Shown here piece by piece: positions 2,886 through 39,682 of a stretch of 40,058 bases of DNA; position 1 is the first letter of the stretch, and every line of letters starts with the position of its first letter. Position numbers and translations under genes: made by a program. The DNA is from a virus (Duplodnaviria; Heunggongvirae; Uroviricota; Caudoviricetes), in the IMG/VR virus record IMGVR_UViG_3300028456_000007. One strand, 5' to 3'. A model generated the notes under the pieces. That model made no database searches. It worked only from the letters and a program-made list of their open reading frames with translations, and had not been told where the DNA came from.

Positions 2886-3170
2886 TCATAATTCTGTGCT
2901 GGTGGCAGGAATTAATTTCTGCCAGATAGCTGAAACATATTTTGCCTGATGACGAGCATCAGCCAGGGCGTTGTGCCGTTCGCCATCGAAAGGCATGTCC
3001 ATTTTGGGGTCGAATCCGATGGAACGCCCAAGCGTAACGATCGTGCGTACATCGTGATCATTCCAGTACGCCCATGGGCAGATTTGTCCTGCTCGTTCAT
3101 AAGCTCCGCGTAAAATTACGTTGTCGAAGGTGGCCCCGTTACCCCAAACTTTTAAATATTTCGAAAACAT
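2886..3170 (-). pseudogene. DEDD-type 3'-5' exonuclease, C-terminal fragment only
   Basis: Exo II-like WGNGATFD and Exo III-like HNALADARHQA motifs present but no Exo I region; ORF starts immediately after stop of upstream HD gene. Confidence 0.4.
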
Positions 3171-5545: not shown

Positions 5546-6199
5546 TCAAAAATCCATTATTACTTGTTTGACAAGACCAACTATTCTGCAGTTCTCACCG
5601 CATTCAATAGTTTTATAGTTAGGATTTAGTGGGACGAGATACCTGTTCGGCCAGTCCTCAACAAATTTTTTGAGTGTCGCTTCTTGCCCACCATTGATAT
5701 GGGCAACAACGATTTTTCCGTTAATACACTCTGTATCAATAATATCTGGCTCTACGATAACGATAGAACCTTCTGGTATCGATGGTGAGCCGAGGGGATT
5801 GGTCATTGAATCACCACGGACCCGTAGTGCAAATGCCATTTCTGATACAAGGGCGGTAGTATAAACCCACTCTTCAGCATCTTCTTTCCTGACACCAGGC
5901 TCCGTCATTGTCCATGAACCCGCCTGAACCCACGAGATGAGGGGGACTTTTTTAACTGCGAATATTTCAGGTTTTAGATTTATCTTTGGTTCAGGCGAGC
6001 CTTTTCCGCTAACAAGCCACAGAGGATCGCATTTAAGTGCGTTGGCTAGGGCTTGAAGGTTGGCTCCATTTGGTTGGTAGTCGTCCTTTTCCCATCCAGT
6101 AACCGTGACACGGTTCACACCAGTCAAATCAGCCAGTGCTTGTTGTGTCAGGTTCAGTTCTTTTCGCCTTTGGCGAATACGATCACTCATGTTCATCAT
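5546..6199 (-). CDS. CI-like phage repressor (N-terminal HTH, C-terminal LexA/S24 peptidase-like autocleavage domain)
   Basis: HTH segment LTQQALADLTGVNRVTVTGWE; C-terminal VRGDSM ... KIVVAHINGGQEATLKKF typical of S24 family; start ambiguous among ATGs 6199/6196/6190 (ORF track 6223). Confidence 0.85.
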   Translation of the reverse strand: MMNMSDRIRQRRKELNLTQQALADLTGVNRVTVTGWEKDDYQPNGANLQALANALKCDPLWLVSGKGSPEPKINLKPEIFAVKKVPLISWVQAGSWTMTEPGVRKEDAEEWVYTTALVSEMAFALRVRGDSMTNPLGSPSIPEGSIVIVEPDIIDTECINGKIVVAHINGGQEATLKKFVEDWPNRYLVPLNPNYKTIECGENCRIVGLVKQVIMDF

Positions 6200-6263
6200 G
6201 TAGGCAATCCTACCACATGCCAATGTAGGATTCTTGACATTGACATGTTGGATATCCTACATT
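6198..6263 (+). promoter_or_regulatory. OR operator cluster with PR-like promoter
   Basis: three sites with palindromic core GT(A/T)GGATATCC(A/T)AC: 6200..6213, 6225..6238 (half-site), 6247..6260; TTGACA 6234..6239 - 18 bp - TACATT 6258..6263; cro ATG at 6295. Confidence 0.55.
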
Positions 6264-6294
6264 TCTGCTTAACGTAATTTAACGGGAGACAGAA

Positions 6295-6492
6295 ATGCGG
6301 AAATCCGACGTGATTAATTATTTCGGCGGAGTTTGTAAAACCGCCGAAGCCCTAGGTATTAAGCATCCGTCTGTTTCAGAGTGGCCTGAGATTATTCCTG
6401 AAGGCCGAGCGTACCAGTTAGAAAAAATTACTAACGGGAAACTGAAAGTTGACGTGTCTTTATATCAAAAGACTAACAGTGCTGCGGCATAA
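6295..6492 (+). CDS. Cro-like small DNA-binding regulator
   Basis: 65-aa ORF divergent from repressor across operators; GGGAGA SD. Confidence 0.6.
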   Translation: MRKSDVINYFGGVCKTAEALGIKHPSVSEWPEIIPEGRAYQLEKITNGKLKVDVSLYQKTNSAAA

Positions 6493-6519: not shown

Positions 6520-7098
6520 GTGGGTAAAGAACCTGAATGGAAAGTTGATAAACAACCAGCATGGCTGGTGGCAGCAATACGAAGAACGATTGCTGATTTA
6601 CCTCATGGCTATGAGGAAGCAGCAGAAATTCTTGGTTTGTATAAATCTGATGATATCACCCCAGCAAAAGATCAATTGCATAACAGACTGCGTAGCGGTG
6701 GGGATCAAATTTTTCCACTTGAGTGGGCCATGGTTTTACAGGATGCCAGTGGTACCAGGCATGTAACAGATGCAATAGCCCGTCGTAGTAATGGGGTGTT
6801 TGTGCCGCTGGTGGTCATTGATGACATTGACAATGGTGACATTAATCAGCGGCTGATGGAGTCAATAGAATGGATTGGCAAGCATTCCCAGTACTTACGC
6901 AAGGCAACTGCTGATGGAGTTATTGACCAGGCTGAGCGTGAGCAAATCGAAGAGAACAGCTACCAAGTAATGGCGAAGTGGCAGGAGCATTTAACACTGT
7001 TATTTCGTGTTTTTTGTGCGCCGGAAAAGAGTAACGCCCGCGAGTGTGCAGCTCCGGGCGTCGTGGCGTTTTGTGTCTGTGGAGAAACTAACGCATGA
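6520..7098 (+). CDS. hypothetical early-right protein (possibly CII-like regulator)
   Basis: 192-aa ORF directly after cro; family assignment uncertain. Confidence 0.35.
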   Translation: MGKEPEWKVDKQPAWLVAAIRRTIADLPHGYEEAAEILGLYKSDDITPAKDQLHNRLRSGGDQIFPLEWAMVLQDASGTRHVTDAIARRSNGVFVPLVVIDDIDNGDINQRLMESIEWIGKHSQYLRKATADGVIDQAEREQIEENSYQVMAKWQEHLTLLFRVFCAPEKSNARECAAPGVVAFCVCGETNA

Positions 7099-8246
7099 AC
7101 AGTTTAACGGCAAATAACCGTTTGTCGCAACAGCTGGTGGTCAGCGTCGCTGAACACCTGTTGTTACGGCATGAATGCAGATTACCAAATCACCTGGCTG
7201 TAAGTAACCACAGAGAACTTTACCTGACTGTGGGGGGCGAGTTGTGCAGGAACTTAACCGCTGGTTTCGTGACGGAAGAGGGCTTTATGTCCATGTTATT
7301 CGTTGGGAGCCAGAAACACAGCGCGTTATCTATCTTCGCAAAGACTACCCGCATGAGTGCTTTAGTCCTTTGTGGAAATTCAGGCGTGATTTTGTTGAGT
7401 GTGAAGGACCACCAGCACATTGATTCTGCCATTCCGGGACGTTACACTGTTCAGGCACCTTATAAAGCGGGTGCCGGGCGTGGAAACCCGGAATTCACCA
7501 AAGCGCACAACCGCGCTCTTGCGGTTTTTTTGTGTCATGAGCAGCATTACGCCCAAATTATGGTGGGGCGTGCAGGGCCAACTTCGGTTGGGCCGGGTTC
7601 TTTGGTGACCGGTATTTCCACCCCTGTACGTCTCACCACCAATAAGGTCGTGGAAAGCCTTGGTGGTGAGTTATTTAAAATCACCAAAGAGGCTGCCATC
7701 ATGGCTACGATCCCAACCCTCACTCAACCTGAAATTGCCATCGTTGATGGTCAGGCTGTTACTTCATCCCTGGCTGTTGCCAACTTCTTCTCCAAACGTC
7801 ATGACGATGTACTGAAAAAGATCCGCACGCTTGAATGCTCCGCATCATTCACTGCCCGCAATTTTTCGGTGAGTGATTACACCGATTGCACAGGCCGCAA
7901 ACTACCTTGCTATCAAATAACCCGCGACGGCTTTGCGTTTCTTGCTATGGGTTTCACGGGTAAACGTGCTGCCCAGTTCAAAGAGGCATACATCAATGCC
8001 TTTAACCAGATGGAGAAACAGCTTTCAAGGCCCGCTGTACCGAGCGACGTTGCACATAACGCCAGCGTTCTCTGTTCCTACATTTCATCAATTCATCAGG
8101 TCTGGCTGCAGCAGCTTTATCCTATGTTGGCAAAAGCCGAATCTCCGCTGGCTGTTAGCTTATATGACTATATTAATGATGCTTCGGCGCTGGCCTGCCT
8201 CATAAATTTGTCGCTGAACCCTTCAGAGGTAAGGGGGCGCAAATGA
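7095..8246 (+). CDS. Rha-family phage regulatory protein (Rha-like domain in C-terminal half; alternative start ATG 7701)
   Basis: ATGA coupling to upstream gene at 7095; Rha-like segment IAIVDGQAVTSSLAVANFF...YQITRDGFAFLAMGFTGKRA; AAGAGG SD before ATG 7701; no in-frame stop between 7095 and 8246. Confidence 0.5.
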   Translation: MNSLTANNRLSQQLVVSVAEHLLLRHECRLPNHLAVSNHRELYLTVGGELCRNLTAGFVTEEGFMSMLFVGSQKHSALSIFAKTTRMSALVLCGNSGVILLSVKDHQHIDSAIPGRYTVQAPYKAGAGRGNPEFTKAHNRALAVFLCHEQHYAQIMVGRAGPTSVGPGSLVTGISTPVRLTTNKVVESLGGELFKITKEAAIMATIPTLTQPEIAIVDGQAVTSSLAVANFFSKRHDDVLKKIRTLECSASFTARNFSVSDYTDCTGRKLPCYQITRDGFAFLAMGFTGKRAAQFKEAYINAFNQMEKQLSRPAVPSDVAHNASVLCSYISSIHQVWLQQLYPMLAKAESPLAVSLYDYINDASALACLINLSLNPSEVRGRK

Positions 8247-8467: not shown

Positions 8468-9282
8468 GTATGGAGCTGATGGTTAAAGCGATGAAAATTC
8501 GAGTGGGTAATCCATTGCGAAAACTGGTTCTGATCAAGCTGGCTGATAATGCCAGCGATCAGGGTGAGTGCTGGCCCAGCTACCAGCATATTGCTGACCA
8601 GTGCGAGATTAGCAAACGTTCTGTGATGAATCATATTGCGGCCCTTTGTGATTCCGGGCTGGTAAAAAAAGTCACCCGGAAAGGTGAAAAAGGTAACTCA
8701 AGTAATATCTATCTCCTTCATCTTGATGGTGCAGGAGATTCACTAGGGGGTAGTGCAAATAATTCACTATCTGGTGCAGCAAATTCACCAGGTAGTGCAG
8801 GAGTTGCACCAGGGGGTGGTGCAGGAGATTCACCCAGAACCAGTCACTCTTTTGAACCAGTCAAAGAACCAGTCAATGAACCAATAGCTGTTGGTGCATC
8901 TGCTGATGAGTCCGTGCGAGTTCGTTCAAACCGACCGGAATACTCTCCGGAGTTTGAGCAGGCATGGCTGGCATACCCCAAACGTGCTGGTGGCAATTCA
9001 AAATCTGCAGCCTTCAAAGCCTGGAAAGCCCGTTTGAATGAGGGGGTAAAACCCGAAACCATGCTGGAAGGTGTGAAACGCTACGCGGGCTGGGTATCTG
9101 CGATGGGTAACAGCGGCACACAATTTGTGAAACAGGCTGTCACGTTCTTTGGTCCGGATCGTCATTTCGAAGAATCCTGGGAAGTTCCTGCGGTATCTGC
9201 AGCCAGACGCGAGGACCCGTACTTCAAAGCCAGTTACGACAACGTGGACTACAGCCAGATCCCGGCAGGATTCAGGGGGTGA
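8464..9282 (+). CDS. replication initiation protein (N-terminal winged-helix domain, O-like)
   Basis: N-terminal LRKLVLIKLADNASDQGECWPSYQHIADQCEISKRSVMNHIAAL resembles phage replication-protein HTH domains; Gly/Ser linker encoded by iteron-like repeats. Confidence 0.5.
   Translation: MSMELMVKAMKIRVGNPLRKLVLIKLADNASDQGECWPSYQHIADQCEISKRSVMNHIAALCDSGLVKKVTRKGEKGNSSNIYLLHLDGAGDSLGGSANNSLSGAANSPGSAGVAPGGGAGDSPRTSHSFEPVKEPVNEPIAVGASADESVRVRSNRPEYSPEFEQAWLAYPKRAGGNSKSAAFKAWKARLNEGVKPETMLEGVKRYAGWVSAMGNSGTQFVKQAVTFFGPDRHFEESWEVPAVSAARREDPYFKASYDNVDYSQIPAGFRG
8728..8875. repeat. iteron-like direct repeats inside replication gene (candidate ori)
   Basis: five 16-bp near-palindromic units (GGTGCAGGAGATTCAC type) at 8728, 8752, 8773, 8794, 8818 with 21-24 bp spacing, then three perfect GAACCAGTCA copies at 8837, 8854, 8866. 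Confidence 0.45.
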
Positions 9283-9284
9283 TC

Positions 9285-9773
9285 ATGAGTCTTTTGAATG
9301 AAGTTCAGAAATTCATTGAAGCCCATCCGGGGTGTACTTCCGGAGACATTGCGGATGCTTTTGCAGGTTACTCACGGCAGCGCGTTCTGCAGTCAGCAAG
9401 CAAGTTACGTCAGAGTGGGCGTGTGGCTCACCGTTGTGAAGGGGATACACGCAGACATTTCCCGCGCCTGACTGAGAGAGCGCAGGAGCCGGAACCACAA
9501 CCAGTTCGTGAAACCAGACCTGTGCGCAATTTCTATGTCGGCACTAACGATCCCCGGGTGATTTTGTGCCTGACCCGCCAGGCGGAAGAACTGGAGTCCA
9601 GGGGCTTATACCGTCGTGCTGCAACGGTGTGGATGGCGGCATTCCGTGAAAGCCACTCCCAGCCAGAACGAAACAATTTTCTGGCGCGTCGTGAGCAGTG
9701 TTTACGGAAAAGCAGCAAGCGCGCTGTATCGGGTGATGAGTGGTATCTGTCAGGGAATTACGTGGGGGCTTAA
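9285..9773 (+). CDS. PerC/Pch-like transcriptional regulator family protein with N-terminal extension
   Basis: C-terminal AEELESRGLYRRAATVWMAAF ... ARREQCLRK matches PerC-family pattern as recalled; ATG 9285 after GTG 9279. Confidence 0.45.
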   Translation: MSLLNEVQKFIEAHPGCTSGDIADAFAGYSRQRVLQSASKLRQSGRVAHRCEGDTRRHFPRLTERAQEPEPQPVRETRPVRNFYVGTNDPRVILCLTRQAEELESRGLYRRAATVWMAAFRESHSQPERNNFLARREQCLRKSSKRAVSGDEWYLSGNYVGA

Positions 9774-16118: not shown

Positions 16119-16439
16119 ATGAAAGATGGTATCTATTTTGTTGTTTTCAGAAGCAATCAACGTGATTTTGGTAATGGTACCGTAGTTGTCAAAAACAATG
16201 CAGTAAACGGCGGAGATTTTGGTTTTACGTATCAGGGAAAAATTGACGGTAGCCAACTTATTCTGCGCGTATCGCAGCATGATTTAAATGTCACCTCGGT
16301 TTTCCCTGGGGTAAAGAACTTTGAATTGAGTCTTTCTTTGCAGGAACGAGGACGTGATTACCTGTTAAATGGATCTGTGGTCGGAATGCCTCAGATGCAA
16401 ATTTCAATTAGTGCAAAATACATTGGTGATCTGATTTAG
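16119..16439 (+). CDS. hypothetical protein (moron between lysis and packaging genes)
   Basis: 106-aa AT-rich ORF with its own downstream terminator. Confidence 0.45.
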   Translation: MKDGIYFVVFRSNQRDFGNGTVVVKNNAVNGGDFGFTYQGKIDGSQLILRVSQHDLNVTSVFPGVKNFELSLSLQERGRDYLLNGSVVGMPQMQISISAKYIGDLI

Positions 16440-34264: not shown

Positions 34265-35017
34265 ATGCATCGTATAGACACGAAAACCGCGCAGAAGGAT
34301 AAGTTCGGCGCGGGTAAGAACGGTTTTACCCGTGGTAACCCCCAGACCGGCACGCCTGCCACCGATCTGGATGATGACTACTTTGATATGTTGCAGGAAG
34401 AACTCTGCAGCGTGGTGGAGGCATCCGGTGCCAGCCTGGAGAAGGCGCGGCACGACCAGTTGCTTACCGCGCTTCGTGCGCTGCTGTTAAGCCGCAAGAA
34501 TCCGTTTGGCGATATCAAATCGGATGGCACTGTGCAAACGGCTCTCGAAAACCTTGGTTTGGGAGAAGGCTCTGCATTACCCGTAGGTGTGCCTGTCCCG
34601 TGGCCTTTATCCACAACGCCAACAGGCTGGCTGAAATGCAACGGTGCGTCTTTTTCTGCTGAAGAATACCCGGAACTGGCAAAGGCTTATCCGACAAATA
34701 AATTGCCTGATTTACGTGGTGAGTTTATTCGTGGCTGGGATGACGGGCGCGGTGTCGATAGCGGTCGCGCGCTTCTTTCTGCCCAAGGCGATGCTATTCG
34801 AAACATTACCGGGCGTGTAGATAATGCGCTAACAAGTGCTCCAACTATTTATCATGGAGCTATGCAATATCAAGGCGCCAGCTCTGTAACAATGGCTGAA
34901 GGCGGTAAGGTTGTATCCGCAATGAATATTTCTTTTGATGCTTCACGTGTTGTTTCGACAGCTTCTGAGAACCGCCCCCGCAACATTGCATTTAATTTCA
35001 TGGTAAGGGCTAAATAA
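34265..35017 (+). CDS. tail fibre protein, constant N-terminal part fused to currently expressed variable C-terminal part
   Basis: N-terminus [21 protein letters not shown] resembles Mu S-type fibre; crossover site falls at residues ~97-101 (LGLGE). Confidence 0.8.
34542..34567. other. hix/gix-like recombination site (left, inside tail fibre gene)
   Basis: CTCTCGAAAACC-TT-GGTTTGGGAGAA; compare recalled hixL TTCTTGAAAACC-AA-GGTTTTTGATAA. Confidence 0.6.
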
Positions 35018-35610
35018 TGAAACCTGTATTTGATGAAAATGACCTGGCAACAGAGGCGGGCAACATCCGTTGTTTCTACTTCGATCCTGTAACGTTCGAA
35101 TATACTGGCTGGTCTGACGAATATATTAATGTTGGTGTAAGCATGCCTGGCCATTCAACAGATATTGACCCAGGTGATGAAGTGGACGGAAAAATTGCAG
35201 TGTTCACAAACGGTCAGTGGGAGCTGTACGAGGACCATCGAGGGGGCGCGGTTTATTCAACAACCGATGCTTCAGCCGTTACGGTGGACTATATTGGCCC
35301 GGTAAAGGATGGTTACACCATCCTTGCACCTTCAGGCCCATACGATAAATGGGATGGAGAGAAATGGGTGACCGATACTGAGGCACAGCATAGCGCCGCA
35401 GTAGACGCGGCAGAAGTACAGCGTCAGTCACTGATTAATACTGCAATGGCTTCCATTAGTCTGATTCAACTTAAATTGCAGGCCGGGCGGAAGCTGATGC
35501 AGGCAGAGACCACCCGACTTAACACTGTGCTGGATTACATTGACGCGGTGACGGCAACAGATACCAGCACAGCGCCGGATGTCATCTGGCCTGAACTGCC
35601 GGAGGCGTAG
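35017..35610 (+). CDS. tail fibre assembly protein
   Basis: Tfa-like sequence directly after fibre gene. Confidence 0.8.
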   Translation: MKPVFDENDLATEAGNIRCFYFDPVTFEYTGWSDEYINVGVSMPGHSTDIDPGDEVDGKIAVFTNGQWELYEDHRGGAVYSTTDASAVTVDYIGPVKDGYTILAPSGPYDKWDGEKWVTDTEAQHSAAVDAAEVQRQSLINTAMASISLIQLKLQAGRKLMQAETTRLNTVLDYIDAVTATDTSTAPDVIWPELPEA

Positions 35611-36019
35611 GCCATTCAATATCTGGCACACTGGAGGTATCAACCAGCTCCAGTGCGTCCAGGTAATCCAGCCACAAATTATATTGCGCCAGTTCCTCGT
35701 CTTTCAGACGACCAATAGCGGCTTTACCGGGCCATTGTTTACTGTTCATGTATTCGTTGGCCTGATTAAGCAATAATTGCCTTTCTGATTCTGCCTGTTG
35801 AATAAGTTCTTCATGTGATGGTGAAGGTATTAGTGCCCATGTGGGTAATCCATTTTCTCCTGCAACACGAATTTTGCCATCTGGGGGCGTATTTATTGCA
35901 AATTCATTATAAACATCGTCACTGACAGCCAGAGCATCATCTGGCCATGAATTTGCATTAATGTAATCATCCTTAAGTGCAGGATTCACAAAAATGTTTA
36001 AAGATGGACTATAAAACAT
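35582..36019 (-). CDS. alternative tail fibre assembly protein (paired with silent fibre variant)
   Basis: Tfa-like sequence on opposite strand, convergent with the other assembly gene. Confidence 0.75.
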   Translation of the reverse strand: MFYSPSLNIFVNPALKDDYINANSWPDDALAVSDDVYNEFAINTPPDGKIRVAGENGLPTWALIPSPSHEELIQQAESERQLLLNQANEYMNSKQWPGKAAIGRLKDEELAQYNLWLDYLDALELVDTSSVPDIEWPTPPAVQAR

Positions 36020-36020
36020 A

Positions 36021-36356
36021 TTACACCCCTATAGCGATATAACGACCTAATACAGCGTTTGCAGCAGTCGCTATGCTTGAAAAACCGCGGAACTGATTTG
36101 ATGTAATTGCAGAAGCCGACAGGATTCCTGCGCCTGAAGGTGTATGCCCCACATGACTAACTATCATTACATAACATGCTGACGGAAAGGCAAAAGGAAA
36201 ATCATTAAGATATCCGGCATCTTCACCACCAGACCCACCAAATCTCGCCTGCCCCCACTGAATAATCAGTGTTCTCCGGGAACCTGAAATAATTAACGGG
36301 ATCGTTACATACCCATTCAGGCCAATGACACCCGATGCAGTGCCAGCCAGAGATAA
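36021..36356 (-). CDS. alternative tail fibre C-terminal segment, silent in this orientation
   Basis: reverse-strand reading frame continues from the right crossover site (GLGELSLAGT...) with no own ATG; in-frame stop just outside the site. Confidence 0.6.
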   Translation of the reverse strand, partial: LSLAGTASGVIGLNGYVTIPLIISGSRRTLIIQWGQARFGGSGGEDAGYLNDFPFAFPSACYVMIVSHVGHTPSGAGILSASAITSNQFRGFSSIATAANAVLGRYIAIGV

Positions 36357-36382
36357 TTCTCCCAAACCAACCTTTCAAATAT
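36357..36382. other. hix/gix-like recombination site (right)
   Basis: reverse strand ATATTTGAAAGG-TT-GGTTTGGGAGAA; inner half identical to left site, outer half divergent. Confidence 0.55.
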
Positions 36383-36441
36383 TTTTCTGAATCAGGTGAT
36401 ATTTCGCCTCTTCTCCTGTTTTTACAACAGGAGAAGCACTC

Positions 36442-37005
36442 ATGATTTACGGGTATGTTCGTGTATCAACAAATCATCAGGATACAGAGTTGCAACGTCT
36501 TGCACTTGAGTCAGCTGGCTGTGAGCGAATTTATGAAGAATATGCCAGTGGCAGAACAGCTAATCGCCCTGTGTTAAAGGAATTAATTACGGTGATGAAA
36601 AGTGGAGATGAGTTGATTGTCTGGAAGTTAGATCGGATAGGGAGAAATGTGCTGCATGCGCTATTGATGTTTCAAAATCTGCACGAAAAAGGTGTTAATT
36701 TTCGGAGTATTACAGATGGCGTAGACCTGAAAACAGCAAGTGGTCGCTATAATTTCCGTAATATTCTTTCTGCTGCGCAGTATGAATCTGATTTGAATAG
36801 CGAGCGAACTTTAGCTGGTTTGGCTATTGCCAGATCCAAAGGCCGGATTGGTGGGCGTAGACCGAAGTTTAGCGACGAGCAGTGGCAACAGATGGGAGCG
36901 CTCATAGCGGCAGGGAAATCACGGCGTTATGTTGCACGTATCTATAACGTTGGGCTATCAACCCTATATAAACGATTTCCTGTTACTGGCATTCAAACGA
37001 AATAA
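36442..37005 (+). CDS. DNA invertase, serine recombinase (Pin/Gin/Hin/Cin family)
   Basis: YGYVRVSTNHQ catalytic Ser motif, resolvase-type N-terminal domain, C-terminal HTH; AGGAGAA SD. Confidence 0.9.
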   Translation: MIYGYVRVSTNHQDTELQRLALESAGCERIYEEYASGRTANRPVLKELITVMKSGDELIVWKLDRIGRNVLHALLMFQNLHEKGVNFRSITDGVDLKTASGRYNFRNILSAAQYESDLNSERTLAGLAIARSKGRIGGRRPKFSDEQWQQMGALIAAGKSRRYVARIYNVGLSTLYKRFPVTGIQTK

Positions 37006-37148
37006 TTTAAAAGCAATTTAAAGAGTTATTTGTCTAATGTTGGAAGCCGCAGCCACGTCGTATGCAAGAACGTGCTGCGGCTGGCTGGCGAACTTTCGAT
37101 AGTGCGAGTATTGAATGATTTCCAGCCGTTACCGATTTTACGTGTTAA

Positions 37149-37397
37149 TTAGTGAACAAACCACTCGTCAGCAGATTCCCAGGTATCTTTCAGAGTCTCC
37201 TGAACAAAAGTTTTTGCAGAATCCTTATCTGCGGTGCGTGTAACAGAAAGGCCATCGTTGCTGGTGGCTTTTACGATCACCTCTACATCGTCATAACGTT
37301 TACTGATGCGTCGGGTTAATTCTTCCTTTAACGCATCCACAGCACCGGTTGGCATTTTAGTCATTTTTTCTTTGGCTATGCAGATTTCAATACGCAT
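37149..37397 (-). CDS. dinI: DinI-family DNA-damage-inducible protein
   Basis: [11 protein letters not shown] ... [16 protein letters not shown] closely resembles DinI; LexA boxes upstream. Confidence 0.8.
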
Positions 37398-37410
37398 AAA
37401 AGTCCCTCTA

Positions 37411-37430
37411 TACTGTGTTTGTATACAGTA
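37411..37430. promoter_or_regulatory. LexA box (SOS operator) upstream of dinI-like gene
   Basis: TACTGTGTTTGTATACAGTA = TACTGT-N8-ACAGTA consensus. Confidence 0.7.
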
Positions 37431-37438
37431 TTATTTTT

Positions 37439-37458
37439 AACTGTATGGATAAACAGTG
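37439..37458. promoter_or_regulatory. second LexA box
   Basis: AACTGTATGGATAAACAGTG = CTGT-N8-ACAG core. Confidence 0.5.
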
Positions 37459-38556
37459 TCAAGAGGTCTTATTTCTGCTCCTTTGGAGCTCTTCAAAACG
37501 ATTATGTAAAGATTTCGGATACAGTTCGGTATATACCTGCCATAGCACGTTTAATGAACGATGCCCTGTAACCTGGGCGACTTCCTCAATACTAAAACCA
37601 GCCTCAAATAAGCGACTTGCCCCTTCTCTACGCAAATCATGGTATCGCAGATCTTTAATACCTAATTTGCTTCTTACCCTCTGGAATCCCGCAGTAACAG
37701 AAGTGCTGTTATATGGAAAAATGAATTCTGATTTTTTGGGTTGTCGTTGGACGATATCCCAGGCTTCCCCAAGCAAGGCTACTTTCATATGGTTGCCTTC
37801 CTTTTTACGTGGATCTTTCCTGTCTCTTACGAGTATGGATTTTTGTTCCTGATCGAGATCCTCCCATCGTAATCGGCATACTTCACCGATTCGCATACAT
37901 GACCACACAGAAAATTTGAGGATATCAACGAACGGAATTTTTGAGCATTTATGTGTAGATCGTTGTTGAAGACCTTCAATGAGCATGTCCAGTTCATCAG
38001 ATGCCGGTCTACGATTACGACGATTTGATTTACCAATTAAACCAAGTTTAAGTAGATATGGACGAGCGGCTTTTGCTGGGTTTGATGTGTAATTAATTCC
38101 ATATACAGGTTTGGCAGCATCCAGAACACTGCCAAGATAACTAACATCGTGGCTAACTGTAGCTGGACCTGCACCAGCGTTGTTTCTTAGCCTGCAATGT
38201 TCAATTACGTCATTTTCTGTCAGTTCAGATAGTTTGATCGCGGAGATGTCACTATCCATAAGCAGTTCCAGCACATATCTTTTAGTACGGCCTGCTTTAC
38301 CTCCGGCATTTGGGTCATTTAAATATTTGTGTAGTAAGTCACGGACTGTAAGTCCGTCAACTGCATTTGATGATGGAATGCCATATAGATCTAATTCCAT
38401 CACTTTCTGTGTGCCCCATGTTTTGGCATGAGCATGTTTAGGGAATGTTTTGCTTTCCCTGTAAGTGATAACACCTTTTTCTTTGATAATCACATTACAG
38501 CGATAGCGTGGTGTGCCATCGGATTTTAGTCGTTTCTCTATGTTATAGTACGCCAT
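37459..38556 (-). CDS. int: tyrosine site-specific integrase (dusA-associated type)
   Basis: C-terminal catalytic pattern HDLRREGASRL ... TGHRSLNVLWQVY; adjacent to 5' end of dusA. Confidence 0.9.
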   Translation of the reverse strand: MAYYNIEKRLKSDGTPRYRCNVIIKEKGVITYRESKTFPKHAHAKTWGTQKVMELDLYGIPSSNAVDGLTVRDLLHKYLNDPNAGGKAGRTKRYVLELLMDSDISAIKLSELTENDVIEHCRLRNNAGAGPATVSHDVSYLGSVLDAAKPVYGINYTSNPAKAARPYLLKLGLIGKSNRRNRRPASDELDMLIEGLQQRSTHKCSKIPFVDILKFSVWSCMRIGEVCRLRWEDLDQEQKSILVRDRKDPRKKEGNHMKVALLGEAWDIVQRQPKKSEFIFPYNSTSVTAGFQRVRSKLGIKDLRYHDLRREGASRLFEAGFSIEEVAQVTGHRSLNVLWQVYTELYPKSLHNRFEELQRSRNKTS

Positions 38557-38644
38557 TACACGACCTCGTTATTTCGGGTTCCCATAAAACGTGGGAACCT
38601 GAGCGGGAACCTAACGCGAGAAAAATAGCCTGAAATGTTCAAAA

Positions 38645-39682
38645 ATGCACGATAATCATGAAACACAAAAAATTAATCAAACCAGCGTGATGCCTGAAAA
38701 AACTGGTGTTTACTGGAATTCTCGGTTTAGCATTGCTCCTATGCTCGACTGGACGGACAGACATTGCCGCTATTTCTTGCGTCTGCTTTCCCGCAATACG
38801 TTGCTGTATACCGAAATGGTGACCACAGGGGCGATTATTCACGGTAAAGGTGATTACCTGGCGTACAGTGAAGAAGAACATCCGGTAGCGTTGCAACTCG
38901 GCGGTAGCGATCCGGCGGCGCTGGCACAGTGTGCGAAGCTGGCAGAAGCGCGTGGATATGATGAGATCAACCTGAATGTCGGCTGCCCGTCTGACCGGGT
39001 GCAGAACGGCATGTTTGGTGCGTGTCTGATGGGTAATGCGCAGCTGGTTGCCGACTGCGTGAAAGCGATGCGCGATGTGGTGTCGATTCCAGTGACGGTG
39101 AAAACGCGTATTGGCATCGATGACCAGGACAGCTATGAATTTCTCTGCGATTTCATCAACACCGTTTCCGGCAAAGGCGAGTGTGAGATGTTTATCATCC
39201 ACGCACGTAAAGCCTGGCTTTCGGGGTTAAGCCCGAAAGAAAACCGTGAAATCCCGCCGCTCGATTATCCGCGTGTGTATCAACTGAAGCGTGACTTTCC
39301 GCATCTGACAATGTCGATTAACGGTGGTATCAAGTCGCTGGAAGAGGCCAAAGCACACCTGCAACATATGGATGGCGTGATGGTCGGGCGCGAGGCGTAT
39401 CAGAATCCGGGTATTCTGGCGGCGGTAGACCGGGAGATCTTTGGTTCCTCGGATACCGATGCCGATCCAGTGGCGGTAGTGCGCGCCATGTATCCGTACA
39501 TTGAGCGTGAACTCAGCCAGGGGACGTATCTCGGCCATATTACCCGGCATATGTTGGGCTTGTTCCAGGGTATTCCTGGCGCGCGGCAGTGGCGGCGTTA
39601 TTTAAGTGAAAATGCCCATAAAGCGGGTGCAGACATTAATGTGCTGGAACACGCGCTCAAACTGGTGGCGGATAAGCGTTAA
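38645..39682 (+). CDS. dusA: tRNA-dihydrouridine synthase A
   Basis: 345-aa ORF recognised as DusA from memory of the E. coli protein; TIM-barrel Dus pattern (NLNVGCP ... K-x-R); conserved host neighbour pspG follows. Confidence 0.9.

Follow-up and report, generated by a model that had tools for sequence, protein, structure and literature searches.

The 61 bp that separate an integrase gene from a dinI-like gene in a 40,058-nt stretch of tailed-phage DNA (hereafter the window) in all likelihood constitute the complete promoter–operator of an autonomous, LexA-repressed dinI 'moron', which would supply a RecA-filament modulator timed to the SOS response. The gap, at 37398-37458, lies between two minus-strand genes and has, from integrase stop to DinI start, precisely the length that the initial annotation had given it. 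It harbours two CTGT-N8-ACAG palindromes (boxes 1 and 2, Table 1), the CTGT and ACAG arms of which are perfect in each case, with centres of GTTTGTAT and ATGGATAA. The accompanying claim, that tandem LexA boxes occupy 37411-37458, was exact in both coordinates and sequence, and these palindromes form the top two LexA-type sites of the window under two different matrices.

Table 1. Coordinates of the dinI cassette and of the associated prophage genes within the window
Feature	Position	Strand	Sequence or basis
CI-like repressor	5546..6223	-	Pfam HTH_3 1.2e-15 + Peptidase_S24 4e-25
Cro-like gene	6295-6492		P22-Cro-like; divergent from repressor
LexA DNA-binding-domain protein, 108 aa	10423-10749	+	Pfam LexA_DNA_bind 2.9e-19
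GC-rich hairpin, candidate terminator	37045..37082	-	dinI 3′ region; faces convergent invertase gene
dinI-like gene, 82 aa	37149..37397	-	Pfam DinI (PF06183) 1.1e-19
Shine–Dalgarno sequence GAGGGA	37403..37408	-	read from sequence; 5 nt before dinI ATG
Box 1, putative LexA site	37411-37430		CTGT-N8-ACAG palindrome; plus strand TACTGTGTTTGTATACAGTA, coding strand TACTGTATACAAACACAGTA
-10 AAAAAT, predicted	37433..37438	-	promoter scan; spacer 18 nt
Alternative -10 TAAAAA, predicted	37434-37439	-	spacer 17 nt
Box 2, putative LexA site	37439-37458		CTGT-N8-ACAG palindrome; plus strand AACTGTATGGATAAACAGTG, coding strand CACTGTTTATCCATACAGTT
-35 TTGACA of predicted dinI promoter	37457..37462	-	promoter scan + mEp460 GenBank annotation
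Tyrosine integrase, dusA-targeting type	37459..38556	-	Pfam Phage_integrase; 3′ end abuts cassette

Across the 40-kb window the CTGT-N8-ACAG pattern occurs 3 times, compared with 0.52 expected, a count of three or more being reached in 0 of 100 shuffled sequences; in addition, box 1 is the sole match to the full 20-mer consensus at up to 3 mismatches, where 0 are expected. All 20-mers of the window were scored using a matrix of the Berg–von Hippel (heterology index) type, based on a set of 28 E. coli SOS boxes, two of which, the dinI and uvrA/ssb boxes, were confirmed in the sequences themselves. This matrix differs from the original Lewis 1994 one, and its heterology indices are approximate in absolute terms. 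On this scale the known boxes span 0.66-9.8, low values being the better ones, with box 1 scoring 2.79, better than the sulA, recA and lexA boxes, and box 2 scoring 4.84, which is comparable to the K-12 dinI box. The third-ranked site of the window lies at 11.97, and 30 shuffles yielded none that scored 4.84 or lower. A second matrix, derived from 47 unique boxes upstream of the dinI genes of other species (consensus TACTG(TA)5CAGTA), again placed the two boxes at ranks 1 and 2 (8.6 and 11.3), with the next site at 19.7. In 176 kb of flanking DNA, strict boxes occur at 0.046 per kb, from which the probability of two falling within 61 bp works out at approximately 4e-6. Under two independent matrices the boxes are, far beyond chance, the two best LexA-type sites of the 40-kb window, and their sequences support an assignment of both as high-quality LexA boxes, to which the repressor would be expected to bind. 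The remaining CTGT-N8-ACAG match, GGCTGTAAGTAACCACAGAG at 7198-7213, sits between a CII-like gene (6520-7098) and a DUF4222/Ash/Rha-type reading frame; with a score of 16, like that of random sites, it was set aside as a probable chance occurrence.

Read on the coding strand, the region is laid out as TTGACA-CTGTTTATCCATACAGTT-AAAAAT-AA-TACTGTATACAAACACAGTA-TAGAGGGACTTTT-ATG, in which the integrase stop codon (TGA, 37459-37461, minus strand) is the inner TGA of the -35 hexamer and the dinI start codon falls at 37395-37397, likewise on the minus strand. Box 2 occupies the spacer between the predicted -35 and -10 elements, its first two bases being the final two of the -35, whilst box 1 begins 2 nt past the -10 and spans the predicted transcription start, expected near 37424-37427, as well as the early 5′ UTR. 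The two 20-mers are 8 bp apart, and most of the -10 is contained within those 8 bp. Phage mEp460 is identical in sequence here, and its GenBank record marks a promoter, TTGACA-N17-TAAAAA, but neither of the boxes. Each of the -10 candidates (AAAAAT, TAAAAA) is weak, rendering the strength of the promoter uncertain, and a promoter scan of the region returned 2 promoter-like sites, i.e. fewer than the 4.5 found in shuffled sequences, so that the scan alone does not serve as evidence. Neither reading of the sequence nor a scan revealed a terminator-like structure between the integrase stop and dinI, and read-through could therefore also express the gene.

At the opposite end of the gene, a GC-rich hairpin (Table 1) is a candidate terminator; RNA folding of 37006-37160 gives -37.8 kcal/mol (z = -3.2), a U-tract is absent from the hairpin, and the terminator scan scored none there. 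The dinI 3′ region (37006-37148, minus strand) forms two stem–loops (z = -3.2), and a segment within it, GGCTGGAAATCATTCAATACTCGC, is common to the DNA downstream of phi80 dinL. The Klebsiella dinI gene gives rise to a 3′-derived sRNA, DinR (PMC10907235). A comparable 3′ UTR sRNA was considered for the present locus and rejected, as the region offers a hairpin only and no match to a curated RNA family, with an Rfam search of 36300-38800 producing no credible match.

The two proteins named by the initial annotation, a DinI-like product and a cleavable CI-like repressor, were both borne out by domain searches, the latter possessing HTH_3 and Peptidase_S24 domains (Table 1). For the former, the match to PF06183 extends over the full profile (positions 1-63 of 63) at 70.9 bits, against a cut-off of 24.2, and is accompanied by a match to PHROG 189, 'RecA filament binding protein DinI' (5.7e-31); its top solved-structure match is E. 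coli DinI (1GHH/7YWA, 3.7e-13). Contacts between DinI and the RecA filament involve a pocket formed by L13, L21, W71, W77 and F78 and an acidic patch of E24, E69 and D76, and are made within a groove that lambda CI uses too (PMC9926225). At the aligned positions the phage protein displays M, L, W, W and F, and E, D and E, respectively, such that L21, E24, W71, W77 and F78 are identical and L13M, E69D and D76E are conservative. By this alignment, all eight RecA-contact residues are kept by the phage protein.

The extent to which such genes are accompanied by LexA boxes was surveyed for 80 DinI-like loci from the Enterobacterales, using one genome per species and scanning 150 nt upstream for CTG-N10-CAG. 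A box of this kind was found at 72 of the 80 loci, against a background of 0.2 per kb, indicating that LexA control is the family norm. Exactly one box is present at 65 loci, typically 37 nt before the ATG, whilst 8 are boxless, with the start codon mis-set in six of these. Two boxes were detected at the remaining 7 loci, and the only true tandems (at -59 and -31) are the four E. coli/Shigella copies of the present cassette. The two-box layout is specific to this cassette lineage, with dinI genes of other Enterobacterales being almost always single-boxed.

With regard to conservation, 22 promoter haplotypes of the cassette show variation in 1 of the 16 CTGT/ACAG core columns compared with 25 of the 54 other columns (Fisher p = 0.0026), a test that overstates independence, the haplotypes being phylogenetically related, and that is circular by itself, as the search pattern demanded the box cores. 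The conclusion that the cores are conserved was for this reason drawn from copy sets anchored on the dinI start or on annotation coordinates only, which contained the same haplotypes and 0 damaged cores. The sole core change is found in a divergent copy, L089, where the fourth base of box 2 is G instead of T and the site still conforms to CTG-N10-CAG, and the AAAAAT hexamer is invariant in all 22 haplotypes. Scores range over the haplotypes from 2.7 to 7.3 for box 1 and from 3.5 to 9.3 for box 2, remaining within the range of proven SOS boxes in every instance, L089 included.

These elements travel as a unit of about 430 bp that comprises the -35, box 2, the -10, box 1, the Shine–Dalgarno sequence, dinI and the hairpin. 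It is found behind at least four unrelated upstream sequences, namely the integrase 3′ end, DNA containing ATGCCCCA repeats, the CP-1639 context beside ssrA and the 2H10/Stx2c context, with every junction located at the -35. Homology between copies in unrelated contexts starts 0-4 nt upstream of this hexamer, whilst its downstream limit in other phages falls at about 37033-37047, just beyond the hairpin. Copies of dinI and its promoter that lack the integrase are carried by IMG/VR contigs, species-representative genomes, CP-1639, 2H10, PhiR63_1 and Stx2c phages. As the same unit recurs in different contexts, with sharp edges that include its own promoter, it qualifies as a moron, and its place next to the integrase reflects chance insertion, with no functional link between the two.

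An 86-bp probe spanning the promoter is matched in 1,166 of 5,426 complete E. coli genomes, with O157:H7 among the carriers, and the full integrase–dinI arrangement is present in 723 genomes. The integrase–dinI segment is 100 % identical in ETEC H10407, against which the coordinates of the window shift by several hundred bp across the early region, and in two other complete genomes; it is also found in phages SKA5, mEp460, 1720a-02, phiSTEC1575-Stx2k and others. In phi80 (about 2940-3005) and, ahead of the -35, in cassette copies L047, L049, L063, L065, L086, L087 and L089, three to four copies of ATGCCCCA(A/T)A lie just upstream of the dinI promoter. This repeat is absent upstream of the cassette of the window, where one chance-level copy is located elsewhere.

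Prophage dinI genes under LexA control are already known, experimentally for the Gifsy phages and by prediction for phi80, and the present cassette adds a modest architectural twist. For the dinI homologues of Gifsy-1, -2 and -3, LexA control and damage induction were shown by experiment (Lemire et al. 2011, PMC3121763); each locus has one box and is induced 4.5-23-fold (PMC8072944 Table 1), and non-polar deletion of these genes had no significant effect on induction (PMC3121763). The likeness lies in a prophage DinI homologue placed behind its own LexA-repressed promoter, such repression being predicted for the window, as a self-contained SOS locus. The Gifsy loci differ in having one box (HI about 4-5, 19 bp from the ATG) rather than two, and in a small antirepressor gene that follows dinI and triggers induction, which is needed because the Gifsy repressors are not cleaved. 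In the window, by contrast, no gene follows dinI, the convergent invertase being 143 bp off, and the repressor is of the S24 self-cleaving type.

The promoter core of phi80 dinL is homologous to that of the window in that TTGACA is followed at once by a CTGT-N8-ACAG sequence in the spacer and then by an A/T-rich -10, its box already being labelled as a predicted LexA site in GenBank JX871397. Further points of likeness are the accessory region between the tail-fibre genes, Pin-type invertase and att site, and a part of the 3′ region that is common to both phages. The phi80 promoter differs in possessing the spacer box only, with none over the transcription start, and the two proteins are 31 % identical; on sequence grounds, the window promoter reads as a phi80-type core with a second, stronger box added over the predicted start site. 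The E. coli K-12 DinI protein is 47 % identical to the phage product, and its gene likewise has a box that overlaps the core promoter right after the stop of the upstream gene, but this box is single, about 37 nt before the ATG, and overlaps the -10 (TTGTCA-N17-TATAAA). LexA ChIP has also been performed at the Klebsiella dinI gene (PMC10907235).

A prophage DinI-type coding sequence behind a double LexA operator is similarly encountered in 186 tum and in split tum–dinI operons. One half of 186 Tum is DinI-like, and the gene is under LexA control (PMC3121763). In the 186-like prophage of CFT073 (37600-37650), TACTGTAAATATAAACAGTGGTTATAAACACAGTA is located upstream of a 62-aa ORF, which is followed by a DinI-family gene. 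This split tum locus differs from the present cassette in that its boxes overlap in colicin style, in that it belongs to a P2/186-like rather than a lambdoid phage, and in that the first product of the operon is an antirepressor. The 'dinI-like' gene c0943 of CFT073 co-moved with sulA, umuD and recN on arrays (PMC2817434); as it is part of another cassette, one of 186-like split tum type, it was rejected as direct evidence here. The lexA, recN and colicin operators also feature more than one LexA site per promoter, with boxes that are adjacent or overlapping, whereas those of the window stand 8 bp apart around the -10. Across the SOS regulon, box number and position govern the tightness and timing of induction (PMC6590174). 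A search of the literature and of existing annotation turned up neither a description of the double operator that this E. coli cassette carries nor expression data for it; a bioRxiv account of 'lexA and dinI' being lost or regained with Stx prophages was set aside, as it refers to chromosomal coordinates and holds no usable evidence.

In a lysogen, two dimers of host LexA would be positioned side by side over the core promoter, covering approximately -33 to +17 and jointly blocking RNA polymerase. With centres 28 bp apart (29 bp in L089), the dimers would probably bind independently, and not cooperatively. Following DNA damage, RecA filaments would bring about LexA self-cleavage, both boxes would be vacated and the promoter would fire. 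As both boxes must empty, one would predict a very low basal level together with an induction threshold above that of the chromosomal and phi80 dinI promoters, which have one box each. The phage DinI would bind in the groove of the RecA filament, as chromosomal DinI does, this being the surface that LexA, UmuD and CI-type repressors also engage, and would be expected to modulate filament stability and co-protease activity. The outcome could be slower cleavage of the phage's own repressor, a prolongation of the inducing signal via stabilised filaments, or mainly a benefit to the host.

Several other explanations of the gap can be set against this promoter–operator. That one box alone regulates, the other being a redundant leftover (box 2 as the ancestral phi80-type site with box 1 a passenger, or the reverse), is unlikely. 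Whilst phi80 dinL works with one spacer box and chromosomal dinI with one over the -10, and whilst a distance of 28-29 bp between centres does not correspond to integral helical turns and so makes cooperative binding improbable, each box singly scores like a proven operator, and both cores are intact in the 22 haplotypes and L089 although neighbouring positions vary. It is very unlikely that the LexA complexes serve mainly to insulate dinI and the convergent invertase, as a roadblock to integrase transcripts, for the same boxes accompany dinI where no integrase is upstream, the perfect -35 and the invariant -10 move together with the boxes, and the homologous arrangements in phi80 and on the chromosome are promoters; the suggestion draws on the lack of a terminator-like structure after the integrase stop and on box 2 starting at the very next base. 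A reading of the palindromes as chance matches, or as operators of the phage's own CI, has in its favour only the abundance of palindromes in phage regulatory DNA. It is excluded by the statistics of two strict boxes within 61 bp, by the conservation of the boxes across contexts, and by the operators of the immunity region (6224-6294), which carry an unrelated palindrome, TGTAGGAT...ATCCTACA.

A further potential reader of the boxes is encoded by the window itself, in the form of a protein with a LexA-type DNA-binding domain (Table 1), from which the S24 protease domain is absent (LexA_DNA_bind being the only Pfam match). Its gene belongs to the delayed-early, nin-like region, where it is flanked by those for a Dam-type methylase and RusA. 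In the model of this protein, a floppy linker joins a LexA-type winged HTH to a C-terminal two-helix hairpin, by which the protein could dimerise; residues 1-69 of the model superpose on DNA-bound LexA (3JSO) with an rmsd of 1.1 Å over 66-69 residues and 51 % identity. Compared with LexA, S39, N41, A42, A43, E45, H46, K53, G54, R64 and G65 are kept, whilst R28N, P40V, E44V and R52K are changed. A retained LexA Ala-Gly cleavage site ('LLAGEE' vs VAAGEP) was considered and rejected, as the glycine is not conserved (ANE in several members). The protein belongs to phrog_362, which has thousands of copies in E. coli prophages and is likewise abundant in those of Shigella and in Stx prophages. A literature search found no publication on its function. 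In architecture it matches the truncated LexA of GIL01 gp6 type, i.e. a LexA winged HTH without the S24 domain, and gp6, its only characterised analogue, activates the P3 late promoter by way of a target site of its own there (PMC6182141). No candidate for a gp6-like repeated target site at a late promoter was identified in the window.

The boxes might also, or mainly, be read by this phage protein, which would then re-silence dinI, and perhaps host SOS genes, in lytic growth, once the LexA of the host is gone. Consistent with this are the domain match and the closeness of the model to 3JSO, the retention of most recognition-helix and wing residues, a hairpin that could permit dimerisation, the delayed-early position of the gene, and the two dinI boxes being the only LexA-type sites in the window. 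Moreover, about 31 of 50 close phage records with the LexA-domain gene also bear this type of dinI. The idea is nonetheless improbable, given the four departures from LexA noted above, the precedent of gp6 as an activator that uses its own target site, and the finding that the two genes assort independently across phages. Thus, dinI occurs without the LexA-domain gene in Stx1a, Stx2a, VT1-Sakai, CP-1639 and PhiR49_2, and SfII, SfIV, SfV and PhiR29, in which the LexA-domain gene is present, are absent among the 60 dinI records listed. An obligatory co-occurrence of the gene and the cassette was rejected, the overlap being partial and explained by shared lineages. It is, in the same vein, quite doubtful that a two-stage circuit operates, in which host LexA gates the DinI pulse and the phage protein, unable to self-cleave because it has no protease domain, subsequently re-occupies the dinI and host SOS boxes. 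Were this true, the SOS response would be switched off again in lytic growth, and phrog_362 would represent a phage-encoded, RecA-proof SOS super-repressor.

As to what a dinI cassette repressed by host LexA would mean for its carriers, it is present in about one-fifth of complete E. coli genomes, O157:H7 amongst them, and in Stx-converting phages, and would provide a second, and by prediction more tightly gated, RecA-filament modulator beside chromosomal dinI. The RecA groove is contested by DinI, LexA, UmuD and CI-type repressors, and additional DinI made under SOS timing could therefore move the threshold of prophage induction, and hence of Shiga-toxin release, or that of SOS mutagenesis. 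The double operator is also predicted to be a compact natural case of an SOS promoter tightened by a second box at the transcription start. Current understanding is left unchanged by the cassette, which is a well-built but ordinary example of an SOS-controlled phage accessory gene, and its value resides mainly in annotation and in a clean promoter that is amenable to testing.

The prophage that surrounds the cassette displays a number of further features. Its integrase belongs to the dusA-targeting family described by Farrugia et al. 2015 (PMC4482086), as judged by its domain, the 5′ end of dusA (38645-39682) as its neighbour, an att motif internal to that gene (GCTCCTATGCTCGACTGGA at ~38737-38755, roughly 95 nt into dusA) and a 5′ end supplied by the phage. 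As the prophage supplies this replacement 5′ end, dusA would be intact in the lysogen, as in phage 1720a-02, which has the same integrase/dusA arrangement (PMC6328086). Late control in the prophage appears to be exerted by a Q-type antiterminator. An invertible tail-fibre segment (34549-36375) is delimited by 19-nt inverted crossover sites, AAACCTTGGTTTGGGAGAA / TTCTCCCAAACCAACCTTT, that bracket alternative tail-fibre C-termini and assembly genes, and is located beside a Pin/Gin-type serine invertase (36442-37005, Resolvase + HTH_7), the two together forming a standard host-range switch.

In terms of cargo, the plus strand encodes a homologue of the PerC family of activators (9279-9773, Pfam 1e-09) and a GrlR-like gene (16119-16439) whose match of 6.6e-06 is just below the gathering score. 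In EPEC and EHEC, genes of the PerC and GrlR types are regulators linked to type III secretion, and their presence here is unexpected, the prophage closely resembling one of an ETEC strain. The attL-proximal end, finally, harbours a Panacea-domain (SocA-like antitoxin) gene at 1-573 and a CoiA-nuclease-like gene at 1341-2375, both on the plus strand, which may represent defence or toxin–antitoxin cargo.
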